A stretch of 13,152 bases of DNA, taken from the IMG/VR virus record IMGVR_UViG_2698536428_000004, positions 1 through 13,152 of that record. The stretch is one strand, 5' to 3'. Below, piece by piece: positions 362-11,131 of the stretch (positions are counted from its first letter, which is position 1; each line of letters opens with the position of its first letter). The notes under the pieces are model-generated. The model saw only the letters and a list, made by a program, of their open reading frames with translations. It did not search any database and was not told where the DNA came from. The stretch is from a virus (Duplodnaviria > Heunggongvirae > Uroviricota > Caudoviricetes). The position numbers were made by a program, and so were the translations under genes.

Positions 362-643
362 TTATCCAGGAAATTGTCGTCTGGAGTGGGTGACACTTAC
401 TATTTCAACACTCGAAGCGGCTACACGGTACAGAATGATATAGTTAGGATGAGCTACAATCTCACGCAAGCCAAACGCTCTGTCGCTTGATGGGTATAAG
501 TACGGATGTTCAGATAAAGCTAAAACACATGTCTCAATGCGAATCTTTAGCCTGCGTGCGGCATGGAGATTTTCTTTTGCAATATAGGCTACGATCTGAC
601 GTAAATCATCACGTGCAGAAGGTAGCCATAAAATGGGCAGCAT
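362..643 (-). CDS. Type II toxin, ParE/RelE superfamily
   Basis: 93 aa ORF (MLPILWLPSARDDLRQIVAYIAKE...IVSVTHSRR) with the layout of ParE/RelE plasmid-stabilisation toxins; its start overlaps the upstream antitoxin stop by 1 nt (ATGA), the classic antitoxin-then-toxin arrangement. Confidence 0.75.
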   Translation of the reverse strand: MLPILWLPSARDDLRQIVAYIAKENLHAARRLKIRIETCVLALSEHPYLYPSSDRAFGLREIVAHPNYIILYRVAASSVEIVSVTHSRRQFPG

Positions 644-834
644 TACACACTCCCGCTAGTCGCAGCAATTTGGGCAATGAGATTTTCCATTTCTGCCATT
701 ACATCATCATGAGGAATTGCAGGGCGCGGATCTGCAAGATTTGCAGCTACTTTTGCACGTAGCCATTCGTTGTAATTATTTTCTTGCTCAACGGTTTCAA
801 ACTCAGAAACCATCGGCGAAAGGGCAGTGTTCAT
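643..834 (-). CDS. Type II antitoxin (ParD/RHH-like), partner of the ParE/RelE toxin
   Basis: 63 aa when started at MNTALSPMVSEF; AGGAGG lies 5 nt upstream of this ATG (plus-strand cctcct at 842-847). The longer track ORF (to 897) has no RBS. Acidic C-terminus typical of antitoxins; overlaps the toxin start. Confidence 0.65.
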   Translation of the reverse strand: MNTALSPMVSEFETVEQENNYNEWLRAKVAANLADPRPAIPHDDVMAEMENLIAQIAATSGSV

Positions 835-863
835 AACATACCTCCTTTGGCTTATGATGTAGA

Positions 864-1271
864 CTATGCTCGGTGCCCTTTCTGGGCAGCGAGCCATCTT
901 GCAACAGTGCGCTCCATTGATTCTTTTTTGTCTTTCATGTCTTTAAGCATTTTTTCTTGATCTTCCTCTGGAAATGCTCCGAATGTTTGAAGCAGTTCCA
1001 TTTGCCTGGGGCCTATTTTCATAGTATCTGGCACCACAACCTGCTCTTCTTCGTTTGGCGGTAACATAAACCAATATGGGGGATAACCCGTTACTTCAGA
1101 AAGTTTATCAAGATTAGCTGTTGATGGACTTGTGATTCCGTGAACCCACTTTTGTACCGATTGCTGGGCAACACCAATCCTGCGGGCTAGTTCTGCCTGC
1201 TTAAGTCCTGTTTTTTCCAGTACCAATTTTATTCGGTACGTGGTTATTTCAAGGGTGGTCATTCGCTTCAT
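864..1271 (-). CDS. Prophage repressor, XRE-family HTH (DicA/CI-like), no S24 peptidase domain
   Basis: 135 aa; N-terminal HTH (LKQAELARRIGVAQQSVQKWVHG) matches XRE/Cro-CI DNA-binding domains; transcribed divergently from a Cro-like gene. Size and organisation resemble DicA of Qin-type prophages. Start may be ATG 1271 or 1262. Confidence 0.75.
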   Translation of the reverse strand: MKRMTTLEITTYRIKLVLEKTGLKQAELARRIGVAQQSVQKWVHGITSPSTANLDKLSEVTGYPPYWFMLPPNEEEQVVVPDTMKIGPRQMELLQTFGAFPEEDQEKMLKDMKDKKESMERTVARWLAAQKGHRA

Positions 1272-2138: not shown

Positions 2139-3179
2139 ATGGCTAATGCCTGGCTCAGATTATGGCATGACATGCCAAATGACCCTAAGTGGCGAACAAT
2201 TTCCAGGGTGTCAGGACAGCCAATCGCAACAGTGATGGCTGTGTATATCCACCTTCTGGTGAGCGCGTCACGAAATGTCACGACATGTCACGGCGTGTCA
2301 CTACGTGGTCACATTGATGTCACAACGGAAGATTTAGCAAGTGCACTTGATGTGACGGAAGAAGTAATTGATTCAATTTTGCAGGCGATGCAGGGGCGGG
2401 TGCTTGATGGAGATTTAATCACTGGATGGGAAAAACGCCAGGTAGCGAAAGAGGATAACGGCAACGTTTCGCAAACCGCGAAATCCCCGGCAGAGCGTAA
2501 GAGAGCACAACGCGAGAGGGAAAAATTACGAAAACAGAATGAGGGGTGTCACGATGAGTCACGCATATGTCACGACATGTCACTACGAGTCACGACAGAT
2601 AAAGATACAGATAAAGAATTAAACCCCACACATAACGCGCGCGTGCGCGAGAGTGCTCCGACCAGTGAATCGAACGGTACGCCGTTGCAGGCAGCGGAAC
2701 CTGATTACCAGGAAAGCCTGAGCGAACCCATCGGGAAGTTTCCGATGGCCGGTGGCTGGCATCCGTCGCCGGATTTTCGACGGCGGGCTGCACTGTGGGG
2801 AGTGGCTCTGCCGGAGCCTGAATTTACACCTGCTGAACTTGCCGCCTTCAGGGACTACTGGGCAGCTGAGGGGAAAGTTTTTACGCAGGTTCAGTGGGAG
2901 CAGAAATTCGCCCGTCACGTAAATCACGTCAGGGCGCAGGTTAAACCAGTCAGCAAGGGGGTGCGTCATGCAGCAGCACCAGGTGGCACCGCATCACGGG
3001 CAGTTCGGGAAATTCGGGCAGCACGTGAGCAGTGGGAACGTGAAAACGGATTTGTCAGCGACGGAAACGGCGTGGAAGCTGTGGGAGCTCATGGGGGAGG
3101 TTTATTCAAACCGCTGGACTCAGAAGAACGGGGCCGCACCTTCGAAGCTCTGGATTGCCCAGATTGGCGCGATGACTGA
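2139..3179 (+). CDS. Replication initiation protein (lambda O analogue; possibly DUF1376/YdaU-like)
   Basis: ATG at 2139 preceded by GAGGTG; 346 aa. Occupies the O position ahead of a P-like gene and contains two intragenic GTCAC iteron arrays plus an AT-rich tract, as in the lambda ori inside O. The 3' end is uncertain because the P-like frame overlaps from 2968. Confidence 0.55.
   Translation: MANAWLRLWHDMPNDPKWRTISRVSGQPIATVMAVYIHLLVSASRNVTTCHGVSLRGHIDVTTEDLASALDVTEEVIDSILQAMQGRVLDGDLITGWEKRQVAKEDNGNVSQTAKSPAERKRAQREREKLRKQNEGCHDESRICHDMSLRVTTDKDTDKELNPTHNARVRESAPTSESNGTPLQAAEPDYQESLSEPIGKFPMAGGWHPSPDFRRRAALWGVALPEPEFTPAELAAFRDYWAAEGKVFTQVQWEQKFARHVNHVRAQVKPVSKGVRHAAAPGGTASRAVREIRAAREQWERENGFVSDGNGVEAVGAHGGGLFKPLDSEERGRTFEALDCPDWRDD
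2267..2323 (+). repeat. Iteron array 1: six GTCAC-containing direct repeats at 10-11 bp spacing (candidate ori)
   Basis: GTCAC at 2267, 2277, 2287, 2297, 2308, 2319 (units such as GTCACGAAAT, GTCACGACAT, GTCACGGCGT); an inverted copy (TGTGAC) near 2352. Confidence 0.6.
2548..2625 (+). repeat. Iteron array 2: five GTCAC repeats followed by an AT-rich tract (candidate ori unwinding element)
   Basis: GTCAC at 2548, 2558, 2569, 2579, 2589; the unit GTCACGACAT is shared with array 1; followed by AGATAAAGATACAGATAAAGAATTAAA (2597-2623). Confidence 0.6.
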
Positions 3180-4395: not shown

Positions 4396-4899
4396 ATGGC
4401 AAAAGTATTTACACAAGAAGAGCGAGAAAAAATTAAAGGGCAGGTTGTTGAACTGGTACGCCGGAGTGGGCGCGAGACGTTACGGCAACTGGAAGCTAAA
4501 ACAGGTGCAACAAGATATCTGGTGAGCGTTCTCGCCAGAGAGCTGGTTGCCAGTGGTGATGTATACAACTCTGTCTACGGGTTATTTCCGTCTGAACAGG
4601 CTCGTAAAGACTGGCAAAACGCCCGCAAAAAACTTTCAAGGGAAAAGGCGAAGAAACCGGCTGTGGTTGATCCGGACCTTATCTGGTCATTACCAGACGG
4701 AGAAATACGCCGCTACGACAGGCGCCTGAACATAATCTGTCGCGAGTGCCGGAATAGTGAAGTTATGCAGCGAGTGCTGGCGTTTTATCAGGGGGTGGGG
4801 TCAGGAGGTGGTGCTGTGAGTGAAATTAGCTATCAGGCTTCAATTTCCGCTGGCATTCGCATCAAAGGAGAGGAGCATGGAAATAAAACCAGAAGATGA
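4396..4899 (+). CDS. Hypothetical protein, N-terminal winged-helix-like domain (possible paralogue of the preceding gene)
   Basis: ATG 4396 (track ORF starts at TTG 4381); 167 aa; N-terminus (GQVVELVRRSGRETLRQLEAKTGATRYLVSVLARELV) resembles the wH modules of the upstream protein; the C-terminal about 25 aa overlap the next gene and may be read-through. Confidence 0.45.
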   Translation: MAKVFTQEEREKIKGQVVELVRRSGRETLRQLEAKTGATRYLVSVLARELVASGDVYNSVYGLFPSEQARKDWQNARKKLSREKAKKPAVVDPDLIWSLPDGEIRRYDRRLNIICRECRNSEVMQRVLAFYQGVGSGGGAVSEISYQASISAGIRIKGEEHGNKTRR

Positions 4900-5233
4900 G
4901 TTAAGTAATATTGTTTTATTTCCGGTAAAAGAGGATGACCCACGTAATCAGGTTAATTTTCTTTATGAGCCATCGGAAAGACCATATTGTCATCACGCCT
5001 CTGTCCGGGTTGACGAAAAAGAGCGTCAGGTCCGCTGTAAAATCTGCGGTGCAGTTGTGGAGCCATTTGACTGGATGCCCTCTGTGGCGAAAAGAGAAAC
5101 CAGACTGGCAGATGATGTAAGGCTCTTGCGCCAGGAGGAACGGGAAAGGCGGAGAAATGTAGAAAAGCTAATTCAGATTGAGCGTAACGCGAAAGCGCGG
5201 ATACGCAGGGCGGCAAAATCAAGAACTGAATAA
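4877..5233 (+). CDS. Hypothetical protein with Cys/His zinc-ribbon-like motif and basic coiled-coil tail
   Basis: ATG 4877 preceded by AGGAGAGGAG; 118 aa; CHH...CKIC cluster then an R/E-rich helix (RLLRQEERERRRNVEKLIQIERNAKARIRRAAK). Confidence 0.55.
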   Translation: MEIKPEDELSNIVLFPVKEDDPRNQVNFLYEPSERPYCHHASVRVDEKERQVRCKICGAVVEPFDWMPSVAKRETRLADDVRLLRQEERERRRNVEKLIQIERNAKARIRRAAKSRTE

Positions 5234-5326
5234 TTAAATTTAGCACTGTTAAAAATTTAATCCTTAACCGGAGGGATTTCTGCACCCTCAGAACATCAGG
5301 AGGCCGTTCGAAATGGCGGTAGTGAA

Positions 5327-5509
5327 ATGCGAAAATTCAAAATAATTATTGAAACGGGAATAGCTGGTGGAGATTTTGAGGATGTATTCGAAGTAGATGA
5401 TGACGCAACACCTGATGAAATTCATGACGAAGCAAAAGAAATTTTCTTTAACTACTGCAATTACTCATACCACGAAATAAAAGATGAAGAGGAAGGACAA
5501 AATGGCTGA
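5327..5509 (+). CDS. Small acidic hypothetical protein (60 aa)
   Basis: ORF MRKFKIIIETGIAGGDFEDVFEVDDDATPDEIHDEAKE..., strongly D/E-rich; overlaps the next gene by 8 nt; weak own RBS, but a strong SD serves a 10-codon upstream ORF at 5313. Confidence 0.45.
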   Translation: MRKFKIIIETGIAGGDFEDVFEVDDDATPDEIHDEAKEIFFNYCNYSYHEIKDEEEGQNG

Positions 5510-5678
5510 TTTTGGTTCAACTAAATATAACGCCAGTTTTGAAGAATGGCATGAACTGTTAATGGATTATGCAGAGTTACGCGGTGGAAGTGCCGCTGAT
5601 GCTGAAGCATGGCGTGATGATTATGAAGCAGGGAAAACTCCGGTCGAAGCATATTGTGATGAGTGGGGCGATGAATGA
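5502..5678 (+). CDS. Small acidic hypothetical protein (58 aa)
   Basis: ATG 5502 preceded by GAGGAAGGA; MADFGSTKYNASFEEWHELLMDYAELRGGSAADAEAWRDDYEAGKTPVEAYCDEWGDE; stop overlaps the next start (ATGA). Confidence 0.5.
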   Translation: MADFGSTKYNASFEEWHELLMDYAELRGGSAADAEAWRDDYEAGKTPVEAYCDEWGDE

Positions 5679-6034
5679 GCGAGATTAATTATCAGGAAGG
5701 GCATGAAAAGGCAGGGCAGGCAAAACCAGTGGCATGGCGATATCGCTACGTGAAAAAAGGCGTTACAGACTTTCAGGGGAAGCAGTGGGCTGGTGACTGG
5801 AAATATGTCCAGACAAAAGAAGATTGTAACGACAGACCGAACTATGAAATTCAGGCGTTATTCACGGCCCCGCCAGCCCCGGTGACATCAGAAGGACTAG
5901 TTAAAGCCGTGTGCTTTTATGAACAGGTAAAGCGTGAGAATCCACCAGTCGAAACAGGTGCATGGAAAGATGCTGTTGACTGGGTACTCAAAGAGGCTTG
6001 CCAGGCTGTAAGCATTAGCAACAAAGGGGGGTGA
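5675..6034 (+). CDS. Hypothetical protein (119 aa)
   Basis: Translationally coupled ORF (ATGA overlap with the upstream gene); no recognisable motif. Confidence 0.5.
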   Translation: MSEINYQEGHEKAGQAKPVAWRYRYVKKGVTDFQGKQWAGDWKYVQTKEDCNDRPNYEIQALFTAPPAPVTSEGLVKAVCFYEQVKRENPPVETGAWKDAVDWVLKEACQAVSISNKGG

Positions 6035-6037
6035 GTA

Positions 6038-6214
6038 ATGCGTGTGGCATGTATCAGTTTGTTACCGTACCCGACTCGTTTTTTGGCTTCTGCGCTAATT
6101 GCAAAGCCGCGTGTCCTGATGGATGACAGCATCATCCCGACACCAAAGCGCCGCCATACCGGTATTGCAGCGGCACGACGAGCAGCAAAGAAACGCAGGA
6201 GAGCAAAACGATGA
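6038..6214 (+). CDS. Small hypothetical protein (58 aa): hydrophobic N-terminus, very basic C-terminus
   Basis: Not in the ORF track (<60 aa). ATG 6038 preceded by AAGGGGGGTGA; hand-translated as MRVACISLLPYPTRFLASALIAKPRVLMDDSIIPTPKRRHTGIAAARRAAKKRRRAKR; stop overlaps the next ATG (ATGA). Confidence 0.35.
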   Translation: MRVACISLLPYPTRFLASALIAKPRVLMDDSIIPTPKRRHTGIAAARRAAKKRRRAKR

Positions 6215-6405
6215 AAAACCGTAAAGCAAAAATTCTGTTAGCTCGCAGAAACGGTGTTGGTGTCTGGCGGTGGGTGAGGATTAGTAACAGACGGGTGAGG
6301 TTGACGGGGTGTTGCGGTGTTATGGGGCACAGTTGTTGCAAAAAGCCCAGCGCGGCGCAAAACCGCTGGAAAAACCACTGTTATCTGCGCACTAAAGGAG
6401 AGTGA
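6211..6405 (+). CDS. Small basic Cys-rich hypothetical ORF (64 aa); coding status uncertain
   Basis: ATG 6211 preceded by AGGAGA and coupled to neighbours, but the DNA is G/T-rich with GGGTGAGG repeats, so it may be regulatory DNA rather than coding. Confidence 0.3.
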   Translation: MKNRKAKILLARRNGVGVWRWVRISNRRVRLTGCCGVMGHSCCKKPSAAQNRWKNHCYLRTKGE

Positions 6406-6406
6406 G

Positions 6407-6922
6407 ATGGCGTTAACACACCGCGAACTCTGTCAGATTGCGTACAAGTTCCTTAAGCGCAACGGGTTCAAGGTTTGCTTTCATGACCGCTTTATAGCTG
6501 TAACCAGTACCGGAGAACAGCCAGATGCTATGGGATTCAGAAATTCAGCATCATGCCTGATAGAGGCGAAGTGTTCTCGTGCTGACTTGTTGGCAGATAG
6601 AAAAAAGCGTTTCCGTAAAAATCCCTCTCTTGGCATGGGCGACTGGAGATTCTTTATTAGTGAGCCGGGAATTATTTCAATTGAGGATTTACCACCTGGC
6701 TGGGGATTACTTCACGTTGTTAACGGAAGAGTACGGAAAGTACATGGGTGGCCCAAGGGTAATTGCTGTTGGGGTGATCCTGACGATAAGCCATTTACTG
6801 GAAATAAGCAGGTTGAATGCGATTACATGTTGTCTGCATTAAGGCGCATGGAGTTGAGGGGACACCTTAATGAAATATATGACGGTGTAATCGTTAATAA
6901 GCAAGAAGGAAGCGCGGCATGA
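6407..6922 (+). CDS. Putative PD-(D/E)xK-type nuclease (VRR-NUC/MmcB-like), hypothetical
   Basis: ATG 6407 preceded by AAGGAGA; 171 aa; motif GEQPDAMGF...[11 protein letters not shown] matches the D...(D/E)xK core of restriction-endonuclease-fold nucleases. Assignment is by motif only. Confidence 0.5.
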
Positions 6923-7263
6923 CCACTTTTACCAGAGAGCAGTTAATAGCTCACGCAGAGGAGACTATTGAAGCACAGAGACTGTGCATACCGGGCACAA
7001 TCGACCATGACATCATCCGCACATATAAGATGGATATTGCTGTTCTGGAAATCGCACTGGCATCGCTGGCAGCAGAGCCAGCCGGTAAATTGCATGAATA
7101 CAAACCAGTGGGACATCAGCGTCTGGTCGACGAGTTAACCATGCTGGTAAAGCAGTTAACCTGGCAACTGAGGAAAACGAAGCCGGACTGTAAATTGCCG
7201 GGTAAGGCGATGGACTACCTGAAGCGAAACGGACTGATAAGCGCAGAGGATGTTTTACGATGA
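6919..7263 (+). CDS. Hypothetical protein (114 aa)
   Basis: ORF with ATGA overlap to the upstream gene; no motif recognised. Confidence 0.5.
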
Positions 7264-7378: not shown

Positions 7379-7435
7379 TGCTGCGGGTGCTTGAGGCTAT
7401 CTGTCTCAGGCATGAATACCAAAAGGCAGATAGAG

Positions 7436-7515
7436 AAAAGCCCCAGTTAACATTGCGCGTCCGGCAAGACGCTTAACATTAATCTGAGGCCATATCTATG
7501 CTCTACACACGTAGG
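7436..7515 (-). ncRNA. sok: Candidate Sok-like antisense RNA (approximate boundaries)
   Basis: By analogy with hok/sok loci the antisense RNA lies opposite the hok leader. The minus strand shows a possible -35/-10 (TTGCCT, 17 nt, TAACCT; plus coordinates about 7551-7523) and a hairpin GCGTC-TTGCCG-GACGC (plus coordinates about 7459-7474). Ends are not defined by sequence alone. Confidence 0.3.
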
Positions 7516-7554
7516 TTAGCCTCTTACGTGCCGAAAGGCAAGGAGAAGCAGGCT

Positions 7555-7710
7555 ATGAAGCAGCAAAAGGCGATGCTAATCGCCCTTATCGTCATCTGTT
7601 TAACCGTCATAGTGACGGCACTGGTAACGAGGAAAGACCTCTGCGAGGTACGAATCCGAACCGGCCAGACGGAGGTCGCTGTCTTCACAGTCTACGAACC
7701 TGAGGAGTAA
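7555..7710 (+). CDS. hok: Hok/Gef-family type I toxin (51 aa membrane peptide)
   Basis: MKQQKAMLIALIVICLTVIVTALVTRKDLCEVRIRTGQTEVAVFTVYEPEE closely parallels recalled Hok ([52 protein letters not shown]); AAGGAGA RBS; the track ORF 7498-7710 is an in-frame 5' extension. Confidence 0.85.
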   Translation: MKQQKAMLIALIVICLTVIVTALVTRKDLCEVRIRTGQTEVAVFTVYEPEE

Positions 7711-10576: not shown

Positions 10577-11131
10577 TGTGGTAAATGGGCGGCTGATGGG
10601 TGTGGTGGTTGTTGCTTTCCCGTTGCTGAAAAAGAAAGCATCAGGCGATTAGCAGGGTATCAGTTACCCGTTGAAATTTTTAAATACCTCACAATTCAGG
10701 CGGTTGACTGTTGTCTGGTTTGCGGGGAGTTTGTTAAAAGAAACTGGCATGGTGAATCCCCCTGTGCGGAGGGGCAATCAGCAACTGGTGTTTTGTCACC
10801 GACCCTTATCCTTTCTGTGCGGGTTCAGGTGCTGATACTGAACTCACCGGGAGGCAACCGGCACCATGCAATGGCACATAGCGCCACTCTCCAGCCCCTC
10901 TCCGGAGGGGCTTTCTTGTGGGCAAAAAAAAGCCTGAGTGGGTTCGGGCAACAGCATGAGATATACATTTTTATAATCGAATGGATTTTAACCAGAATTC
11001 ATAAGGCTGCGCAACTGCGCGGTCTTTTTCGAATTGCGGGCTGTCGTCTCCCTTCTGCCATTGTCCTGTAACTTCCGGACTTCAGCCCGCTCCTTATTTT
11101 ACTCACAATATTATCCCGGCCGGGAGGATTC

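Follow-up and report, generated by a model that had tools for sequence, protein, structure and literature searches.

The window analysed here is the complete 13,152-nucleotide (nt) stretch of the virus record IMGVR_UViG_2698536428_000004 (Caudoviricetes). We characterized a run of small genes that begins at position 5327 with two open reading frames (ORFs), ORF1 and ORF2, encoding strongly acidic mini-proteins, together with the leader that precedes them. The run opens the nin-like accessory part of the early-right operon in a Rac/Qin-type lambdoid Escherichia coli prophage. An earlier note on this DNA had described five tiny, translationally coupled genes and had proposed that the two acidic proteins are DNA mimics or other anti-defence factors. 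All five genes were found to be present and co-directional. The coupled run consists of seven genes (5327-7263), so the five genes described before were confirmed but the run continues through ORF6 and ORF7. The genes are as follows.

5327-5509, plus strand: ORF1, 60 amino acids (aa), 18 Asp or Glu residues, net charge -13, isoelectric point (pI) 4.1
5502-5678, plus strand: ORF2, 58 aa, 16 Asp or Glu residues, net charge -12, pI 4.05
5675-6034, plus strand: ORF3, 119 aa, net charge 0
6038-6214, plus strand: ORF4, 58 aa, net charge +14, pI 12
6211-6405, plus strand: ORF5, 64 aa, net charge +16, 5 Cys
6407-6922, plus strand: ORF6, 171 aa, matching phrog_631 and phrog_9263
6919-7263, plus strand: ORF7, 114 aa, last gene of the coupled run

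ORF1 and ORF2 overlap by 8 nt, ORF2 and ORF3 meet in the sequence ATGA, ORF3 and ORF4 are separated by 3 nt, and ORF4 and ORF5 again meet in ATGA. Beyond 6405, there is a 1-nt gap between ORF5 and ORF6 and another ATGA between ORF6 and ORF7. These overlapping or abutting junctions fit the translational coupling that had been suggested for the small genes. Inside the run, no promoter-like or terminator-like sites were found above shuffle expectation.

We judge all five small ORFs to be real genes because of their PHROG matches, the variability of their third codon positions and their maintained reading frames. Each of them matched a PHROG family labelled as of unknown function, with E-values from 1e-23 to 1e-44. 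In alignments of 51-80 related loci per ORF, the numbers of variable columns at codon positions 1, 2 and 3 were 5, 8 and 28 for ORF1, 11, 11 and 26 for ORF2, 32, 35 and 53 for ORF3, 17, 22 and 34 for ORF4, and 24, 26 and 39 for ORF5. Of 59 loci, 58 have an open ORF4 frame of 57-58 codons. The ORF5 frame is open in all 93 copies, which include sub-families down to about 43% identity. Conservation across related prophages, on which the earlier note had made its proposal depend, was thus observed, with frames open across dozens of related loci. Neither ORF4 nor ORF5 carries a PGAP annotation in the closest genome. A candidate antisense gene at 6132-6341 in place of ORF5 was rejected as a shadow ORF, since most variants interrupt it with internal stops. 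When all ORFs in the run were scanned for families, the only hit was DUF7167 for ORF1, and ORF2 to ORF5 matched nothing in Pfam, NCBIfam or PADLOC.

The leader upstream of ORF1 contains three features.

5298-5303, plus strand: Shine-Dalgarno (SD) sequence AGGAGG, whose last G is the first base of the hairpin stem
5303-5320, plus strand: hairpin between the SD sequence and ORF1, present here as the weakened allele GCCGTTC-GAAA-TGGCGGT
5313-5345, plus strand: upstream ORF (uORF) of 10 codons (MAVVKCENSK), allele-specific

All 27 upstream variants keep the SD sequence, either as AGGAG[G/A] or nearly so. In the window, its linear distance from the ORF1 ATG (5327) is 24 nt counted from AGGAG and 23 nt from AGGAGG. 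The spacer that follows the hairpin, AGTGAA, contains no proximal SD sequence. In the consensus, the hairpin has the form G/A-CCGCCC GAAA/GGCA GGGCGG-T, with a 7-bp stem and a loop that is always GNRA (GAAA or GGCA). Among 79 related loci, all 7 pairs can form in 53 and 6 pairs in another 19. When three relatives' alleles were folded, the hairpin energies were -12 to -14 kcal/mol (z -3.4 to -4.2 against shuffles). The window allele differs from the consensus by three substitutions and reaches -6.2 kcal/mol (z -0.28). Once the hairpin is formed, AGGAG lies at an effective 6 nt from the ATG.

We scanned IMG/VR for the leader motif and obtained 121 instances. In nearly every one, a start codon follows the hairpin at a distance of 5-8 nt, and the post-hairpin spacers are A-rich and have no SD sequence of their own. 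Three copies of the Ead/Ea22 type also carry an in-frame ATG 1 nt after the hairpin. This placement of start codons is an independent and stronger test of the hairpin than covariation. The leader (5298-5326 in the window, with further instances in loci L190-L269 and at 1501-1534 and 2570-2605 of locus L007) precedes, in contigs of lambdoid phages, at least four unrelated families: DUF7167, the Ead/Ea22-like 'M[TA]ELTKE...' proteins, a 72-aa membrane protein and a 158-196 aa protein. In Stx phage ArgO145, it occurs twice, before different genes. By analogy with genes 38 and 25 of phage T4, the conserved leader can be described as a split SD site. We considered but did not adopt a reading of the hairpin as boxB of a nut site, since boxA is missing, the loop has four bases where boxB has a pentaloop, and the copies stand directly before start codons.

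The AGGAGG had previously been assigned to the uORF, with ORF1 coupled to it. Both the uORF and the AGGAGG exist, but the conserved feature is the hairpin. The uORF ATG arises by a G-to-T change in the 3' arm of the hairpin and was found in 12 of the 79 related loci, the other 67 reading AGG or AAG. We considered whether ORF1 is expressed through the uORF by termination-reinitiation coupling. The geometry in the window would allow it: AGGAGG lies 9 nt before the uORF ATG, the uORF stop is 16 nt past the ORF1 ATG, and the hairpin is weakened in this allele. This route seems improbable, as 67 of the 79 loci lack the ATG and the leader also serves unrelated genes that have no uORF. Since the same substitutions both weaken the stem and create the ATG, the uORF is best read as a by-product of the substitutions that weaken the hairpin. 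This bears on the annotation of start sites and on expression design. Of the results of this analysis, the portable split-SD hairpin leader is the most concrete and testable.

The order of genes in related loci suggested that the run is put together from independent cassettes. ORF1 followed by ORF2 was observed in 80 of 80 close loci, and ORF3 came next after ORF2 in 61 of them. ORF4 and ORF5 were found alongside ORF1 and ORF2 in only 3 of the 80. Conversely, in 80 loci bearing ORF5, ORF4 and ORF5 were adjacent in most cases, sometimes with ORF6 next. Judged from these arrangements, the run comprises an acidic cassette (ORF1-ORF2), an Ead/Ea22-like one (ORF3) and a basic one (ORF4-ORF5). The acidic genes had been described as translationally coupled to the three downstream ORFs; these belong to separate mobile cassettes, ORF3 and ORF4-ORF5. 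The cassettes would be read as one chain through their overlapping or abutting stop and start codons. The leader, ORF1 and ORF2 would together make up the first of them, cassette A, in which the hairpin would bring AGGAG to the effective 6-nt spacing.

The distribution of the cassettes also differs. The query 5234-6420 had a partial match in 2670 of 5426 complete E. coli genomes, with different cassettes covered by different matches, and at least 80% of it was contiguous in only 1 of these genomes, which indicates a mosaic locus. The ORF1-ORF2 cassette is also present on the exo-xis side of Stx phage ArgO145, near Ead/Ea22-like genes. The ORF4-ORF5 cassette was found in 365 plasmid records, mostly non-mobilizable and of about 93-100 kb. 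From their size and a P1-like phage record, these look like P1-type phage-plasmids. The acidic cassette was found in only 11 plasmid records, so it shows no leading-region pattern. Taken as a whole, this part of the lambdoid early operon is an ordinary mosaic whose accessory cassettes are uncharacterised. Two further observations concern the acidic cassette. In E. coli OkiPb01697, the IS66-family element ISCro1 lies within the ORF1 homologue (locus L001, 4332-6947), and the query matches overlap by 8 bp on each side, consistent with a target-site duplication. The cassette is also present in record PP818812.1, whose name is Actinobacillus phage vB_Apl-pPE4, where it shares 91% nucleotide identity with the E. 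coli prophage; for a Pasteurellaceae host, this is unexpected.

ORF3 and ORF7 appear to frame a variable slot. ORF3 matched positions 34-143 of phrog_660, which is of the modular Ead/Ea22-like type, and the C-terminal 48 residues of ORF7 matched positions 146-193 of the same family. As the two proteins match the two ends of one family, ORF3 and the ORF7 C-terminus look like the conserved ends of an Ead/Ea22-like module around a variable slot. The slot holds ORF4, ORF5 and ORF6 here, and an XF1762-family gene with two small genes in strain TUM10008. ORF4 (phrog_13831) is very basic, has an arginine-rich C-terminal tail and is equivalent to p49 of phiV10. ORF5 (phrog_1380) is also very basic and is equivalent to the phiV10 p50/p51 and VT2-Sa p08 type. 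It had been described as basic and Cys-rich; the basic character (+16) stands, but the 5 Cys are allele-specific and not conserved in the family. What is conserved in ORF5 is its two ends, an N-terminal MKNRKAK and a C-terminal SA[AS]QNR[WR]K, the latter kept through synonymous changes (CAA/CAG, CGC/AGG). ORF5-type genes occur as tandem duplicates in phiV10 (p50/p51, locus L003, 2699-3069) and in a P1-like record (locus L004, about 2700-3060). The duplicated units have diverged middles, retain both conserved ends, and each finish in the same SD-bearing junction, which also feeds the next gene whatever its kind. BLASTP gave no alignment between ORF4 and ORF5. The two form a separate cassette of small arginine-rich proteins, for which nucleic-acid binding is a guess.

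For ORF6, a D...E.K motif suggests a PD-(D/E)xK-like nuclease, and Pfam and PDB sequence searches gave no match. PDB sequence and profile searches with ORF3 and ORF6 gave no meaningful match. In strain OkiPb01697, the annotation gives a frameshift in the ORF6 equivalent, and elsewhere ORF6 is sometimes annotated as fused with ORF5 (phrog_9263, 230 aa).

ORF1 belongs to the Pfam family DUF7167 (PF23768). It scored 53.5 bits against a cut-off of 24.4 (E-value 2.6e-14), with residues 2-53 aligned to profile positions 1-60, and is also a member of phrog_1997. The AlphaFold2 model has the order beta(2-10)-beta(15-23)-alpha(29-40)-beta(45-51), with a predicted local distance difference test score (pLDDT) of 79. 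Members of DUF7167 are stand-alone proteins of 55-60 aa, and no fusions were found among the 120 proteins listed of 158 matches (E-value of at most 0.001). The family was observed in lambdoid prophages of Escherichia, Klebsiella, Citrobacter, Yersinia and Serratia, nin regions included, as well as in a P22-like pL operon, Guernseyvirinae (Klebsiella phages), Enterococcus Herelleviridae and a 151-kb Pseudomonas phage. From E. coli to Enterococcus and Pseudomonas phages, its members have net charges of -10 to -14. In the library searched, no paper mentioned DUF7167, and PDB sequence and profile searches with ORF1, including the family profile, gave no meaningful match. Pseudomonas phage PsgM04F carries, immediately upstream of its DUF7167 gene, a gene (locus L182, 1810-2004) for an acidic protein of similar size with an EEEE tail, which may be a diverged tandem paralogue.

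ORF2 matched positions 76-137 of phrog_519 and has no Pfam family. It is predicted to be a three-helix bundle (pLDDT 87). An exhaustive HMMER search for its family gave 61 representatives, almost all of 31-127 residues (two longer low-complexity matches aside), which share the motif F.EW..L..A..GGS.AD.AWR.DY.AG.TP.EAW.DEW and have net charges of -4 to -15 (median -10). Distant members lie after gpA in P2-like phages and prophages, beside replication genes. Others were located in the early regions of two further temperate phages, one of them Mu-like, where the region is the semi-essential one. PDB sequence searches with ORF2, including the family profile, gave no meaningful match, and Foldseek against the PDB returned two homeodomain matches only (E-value of about 3).

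ORF1 and ORF2 are not paralogues, as judged from their predicted folds, which differ. The pairing of the two was also considered as a feature conserved across the families and was rejected: 13 diverse DUF7167 loci contained 0 ORF2-family matches, and the pairing is limited to the E. coli cassette. ORF1 and ORF2 thus represent two widespread families that are unrelated to each other, both consisting of stand-alone proteins about 55 residues long. Both are common to temperate and virulent phages, and DUF7167 spans Gram-negative and Gram-positive hosts.

The description of the two proteins as strongly acidic held up well, as acidity is a conserved trait of both families. Because the negative charge persists in distant relatives of both, it probably matters for function. 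We suggest that ORF1 and ORF2 would be made early after induction and would act as host-takeover or counter-defence factors, each binding stoichiometrically to a basic surface with which a protein of the host or of a rival phage binds nucleic acids. The idea of an inhibitor is based on conserved charge, small size and early accessory position, which are suggestive but not diagnostic. Several findings weigh against it and the wider picture. No homology points to any target in Pfam, NCBIfam, PADLOC or PDB sequence searches, ORF1 being assigned to a DUF only. Neither family has a recurring neighbour gene, so genomic context supplied no functional partner. The hairpin shows only weak covariation, with one compensatory pair, common A.C mismatches and measures that are matched by most shuffles. 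In the window itself, the hairpin is weak, so the uORF may contribute to ORF1 expression here. Taken together, we assign a probability of about 40% to the whole picture, in which mosaic early-operon cassettes and a portable leader are combined with charge-dependent binding of ORF1 and ORF2 to a host or rival nucleic-acid-binding protein.

The alternative that survives best is that the acidic proteins act on the phage's own programme, in lysis-lysogeny, replication or recombination, like the exo-xis proteins Orf60a, Orf61, Orf63, Ea8.5 and Ea22 of lambda and Stx phages. The ORF1-ORF2 cassette of ArgO145 lies on the exo-xis side next to Ead/Ea22-like genes, DUF7167 genes are often beside such genes elsewhere, and the ORF2 family is next to replication genes in P2-like phages. 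The exo-xis genes are reported to affect lysogenization and prophage induction (PMC3824215, PMC7093339), which also counts for this alternative. However, DUF7167 is also present in virulent phages (Guernseyvirinae and Herelleviridae), which make no lysogeny decision, and neither protein has homology to characterised exo-xis proteins. An exonuclease that appeared to be a conserved DUF7167 neighbour failed as such: what looked like an exonuclease in Enterococcus is a DUF3850/ASCH protein, and its Klebsiella counterpart is a DUF2800 PD-(D/E)XK protein. We regard an action on the phage's own programme as doubtful, although it comes before the remaining alternatives.

The proposal of a DNA-mimic or anti-defence role is plausible in general, but its specific form, in which ORF1, ORF2 or both would mimic DNA to counter restriction or other defences as Ocr, ArdA, Gam or T7 gp5.9 do, is unlikely. 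Its basis was in part upheld: both proteins are small, strongly acidic and encoded at an early lambdoid accessory site, their acidity is conserved, and the presence of DUF7167 in phages of Gram-negative and Gram-positive hosts fits a generic target such as a DNA-binding groove. Against this, neither protein matched a known mimic or anti-defence family in Pfam, NCBIfam or PDB sequence searches (PADLOC covers defence proteins, not anti-defence proteins), and only generic folds were matched. On plasmids, the acidic cassette is rare (11 records) and lies outside conjugative leading regions, and the supplementary files of one large accessory-gene screen held no matching sequence. In a paper that models exo-xis proteins, 'DNA mimic' does not occur and 'acidic' is applied to Orf73 only.

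That ORF1 is a distant relative or analogue of T7 Gp2, the inhibitor of host RNA polymerase, is very unlikely: Gp2 has the beta-beta-alpha-beta topology predicted for ORF1 and the same size, is the top Foldseek PDB match of the ORF1 model (TM 0.50/0.56, 18% identity) and is aligned by hhalign in the same register (KKFWATVES...SFEV on RKFKIIIET...VFEV), but this Foldseek match has an E-value of 1.1, and hhalign assigns it a probability of 0.5%, or 0.2% when the profile is deepened. ORF1 also has no match to PF16857 at an E-value of 0.1 or below, whereas Gp2 itself scores 97.5 bits against that profile. Phage p56 was also among the Foldseek matches of ORF1.

If ORF1 or ORF2 does act as an inhibitor through charge-dependent binding, two very widespread families would join the short list of counter-defence and host-takeover proteins. 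A stronger version is at present a long shot. In it, DUF7167 and the ORF2 family would each be a new class of inhibitor that uses its charge against host or defence proteins that bind nucleic acids, DUF7167 perhaps by blocking RNA polymerase in the manner of T7 Gp2 or by inhibiting a nuclease, and the leader would be a portable expression module for plugging accessory genes into early operons.

The surrounding 13-kb window is the immunity and early-right region of the prophage, as identified from Pfam matches of the flanking genes, the Rfam sok match and the PGAP annotation of near-identical loci. Near-identical DNA in E. coli chromosomes carries the same PGAP annotation. The early-right genes are in the order repressor/Cro, YdaT, DnaT-domain O-like, lambda P, DUF1627, DUF977, zinc-ribbon, the coupled run, hok/sok, DUF968, RusA and Q. 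The other features of the window are listed below.

362-897, minus strand: ParE/PaaA2 toxin-antitoxin pair
864-1271, minus strand: cI-like repressor, with a Cro/YdaS-like gene next
4877-5233: zinc-ribbon protein gene, directly before the run
7385-7560: Rfam sok match (116 bits) of a hok/sok type I toxin-antitoxin locus, immediately 3' of the coupled run
within 7498-7710: Hok-like ORF, the whole hok/sok locus spanning 7385-7710
10718-10923: small RNA STnc100, full-length match (140.6 bits), downstream of the Q antiterminator gene

The ParE/PaaA2 pair adjoins the repressor, and the PaaA2-type antitoxin ORF overlaps the 3' end of the cI-like gene.

We compared the locus with known systems. Within DUF7167 and phrog_1997, ORF1 is an ordinary member, with a full-length match and the typical size of 55-60 aa, and no difference was seen. 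T7 Gp2 (PF16857) binds the beta' jaw of RNA polymerase. It is the best small-protein fold match of ORF1, and the two are alike in being small, acidic and early. Going by the ORF1 model, they may also share the beta-beta-alpha-beta order and an acidic helix face. They have no significant sequence or profile similarity, and their fold score does not stand out from those of the many generic alpha/beta domains.

With the DNA mimics T7 Ocr, ArdA, lambda Gam and T7 gp5.9, the acidic proteins share small size, strong acidity that is family-wide, and early position. The known mimics are helical dimers or elongated structures, whereas ORF1 is predicted to be a compact alpha/beta domain and ORF2 a three-helix bundle, and there is no homology. 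The accessory proteins of the exo-xis and nin regions (Orf60a, Orf61, Orf63, Ea8.5, Ea22 and Nin) belong to different families, and none of the five ORFs matches a characterised member. They share with this locus their niche, mosaic cassette behaviour and early expression, and ORF3 and ORF7 are Ead/Ea22-like.

The leader finds its counterpart in genes 38 and 25 of phage T4, for which a split SD site has been shown experimentally, a hairpin reducing the spacing from 22 nt to 5 in gene 38 and from 27 nt to 11 in gene 25 (PMC3014915). The putative split-SD leader described here differs from these in being portable, in its GNRA tetraloop and in the degraded allele of the window. What it has in common with them is an SD sequence that is too distant from the start codon (23-24 nt here) and a stable hairpin that would restore the spacing (6 nt here).

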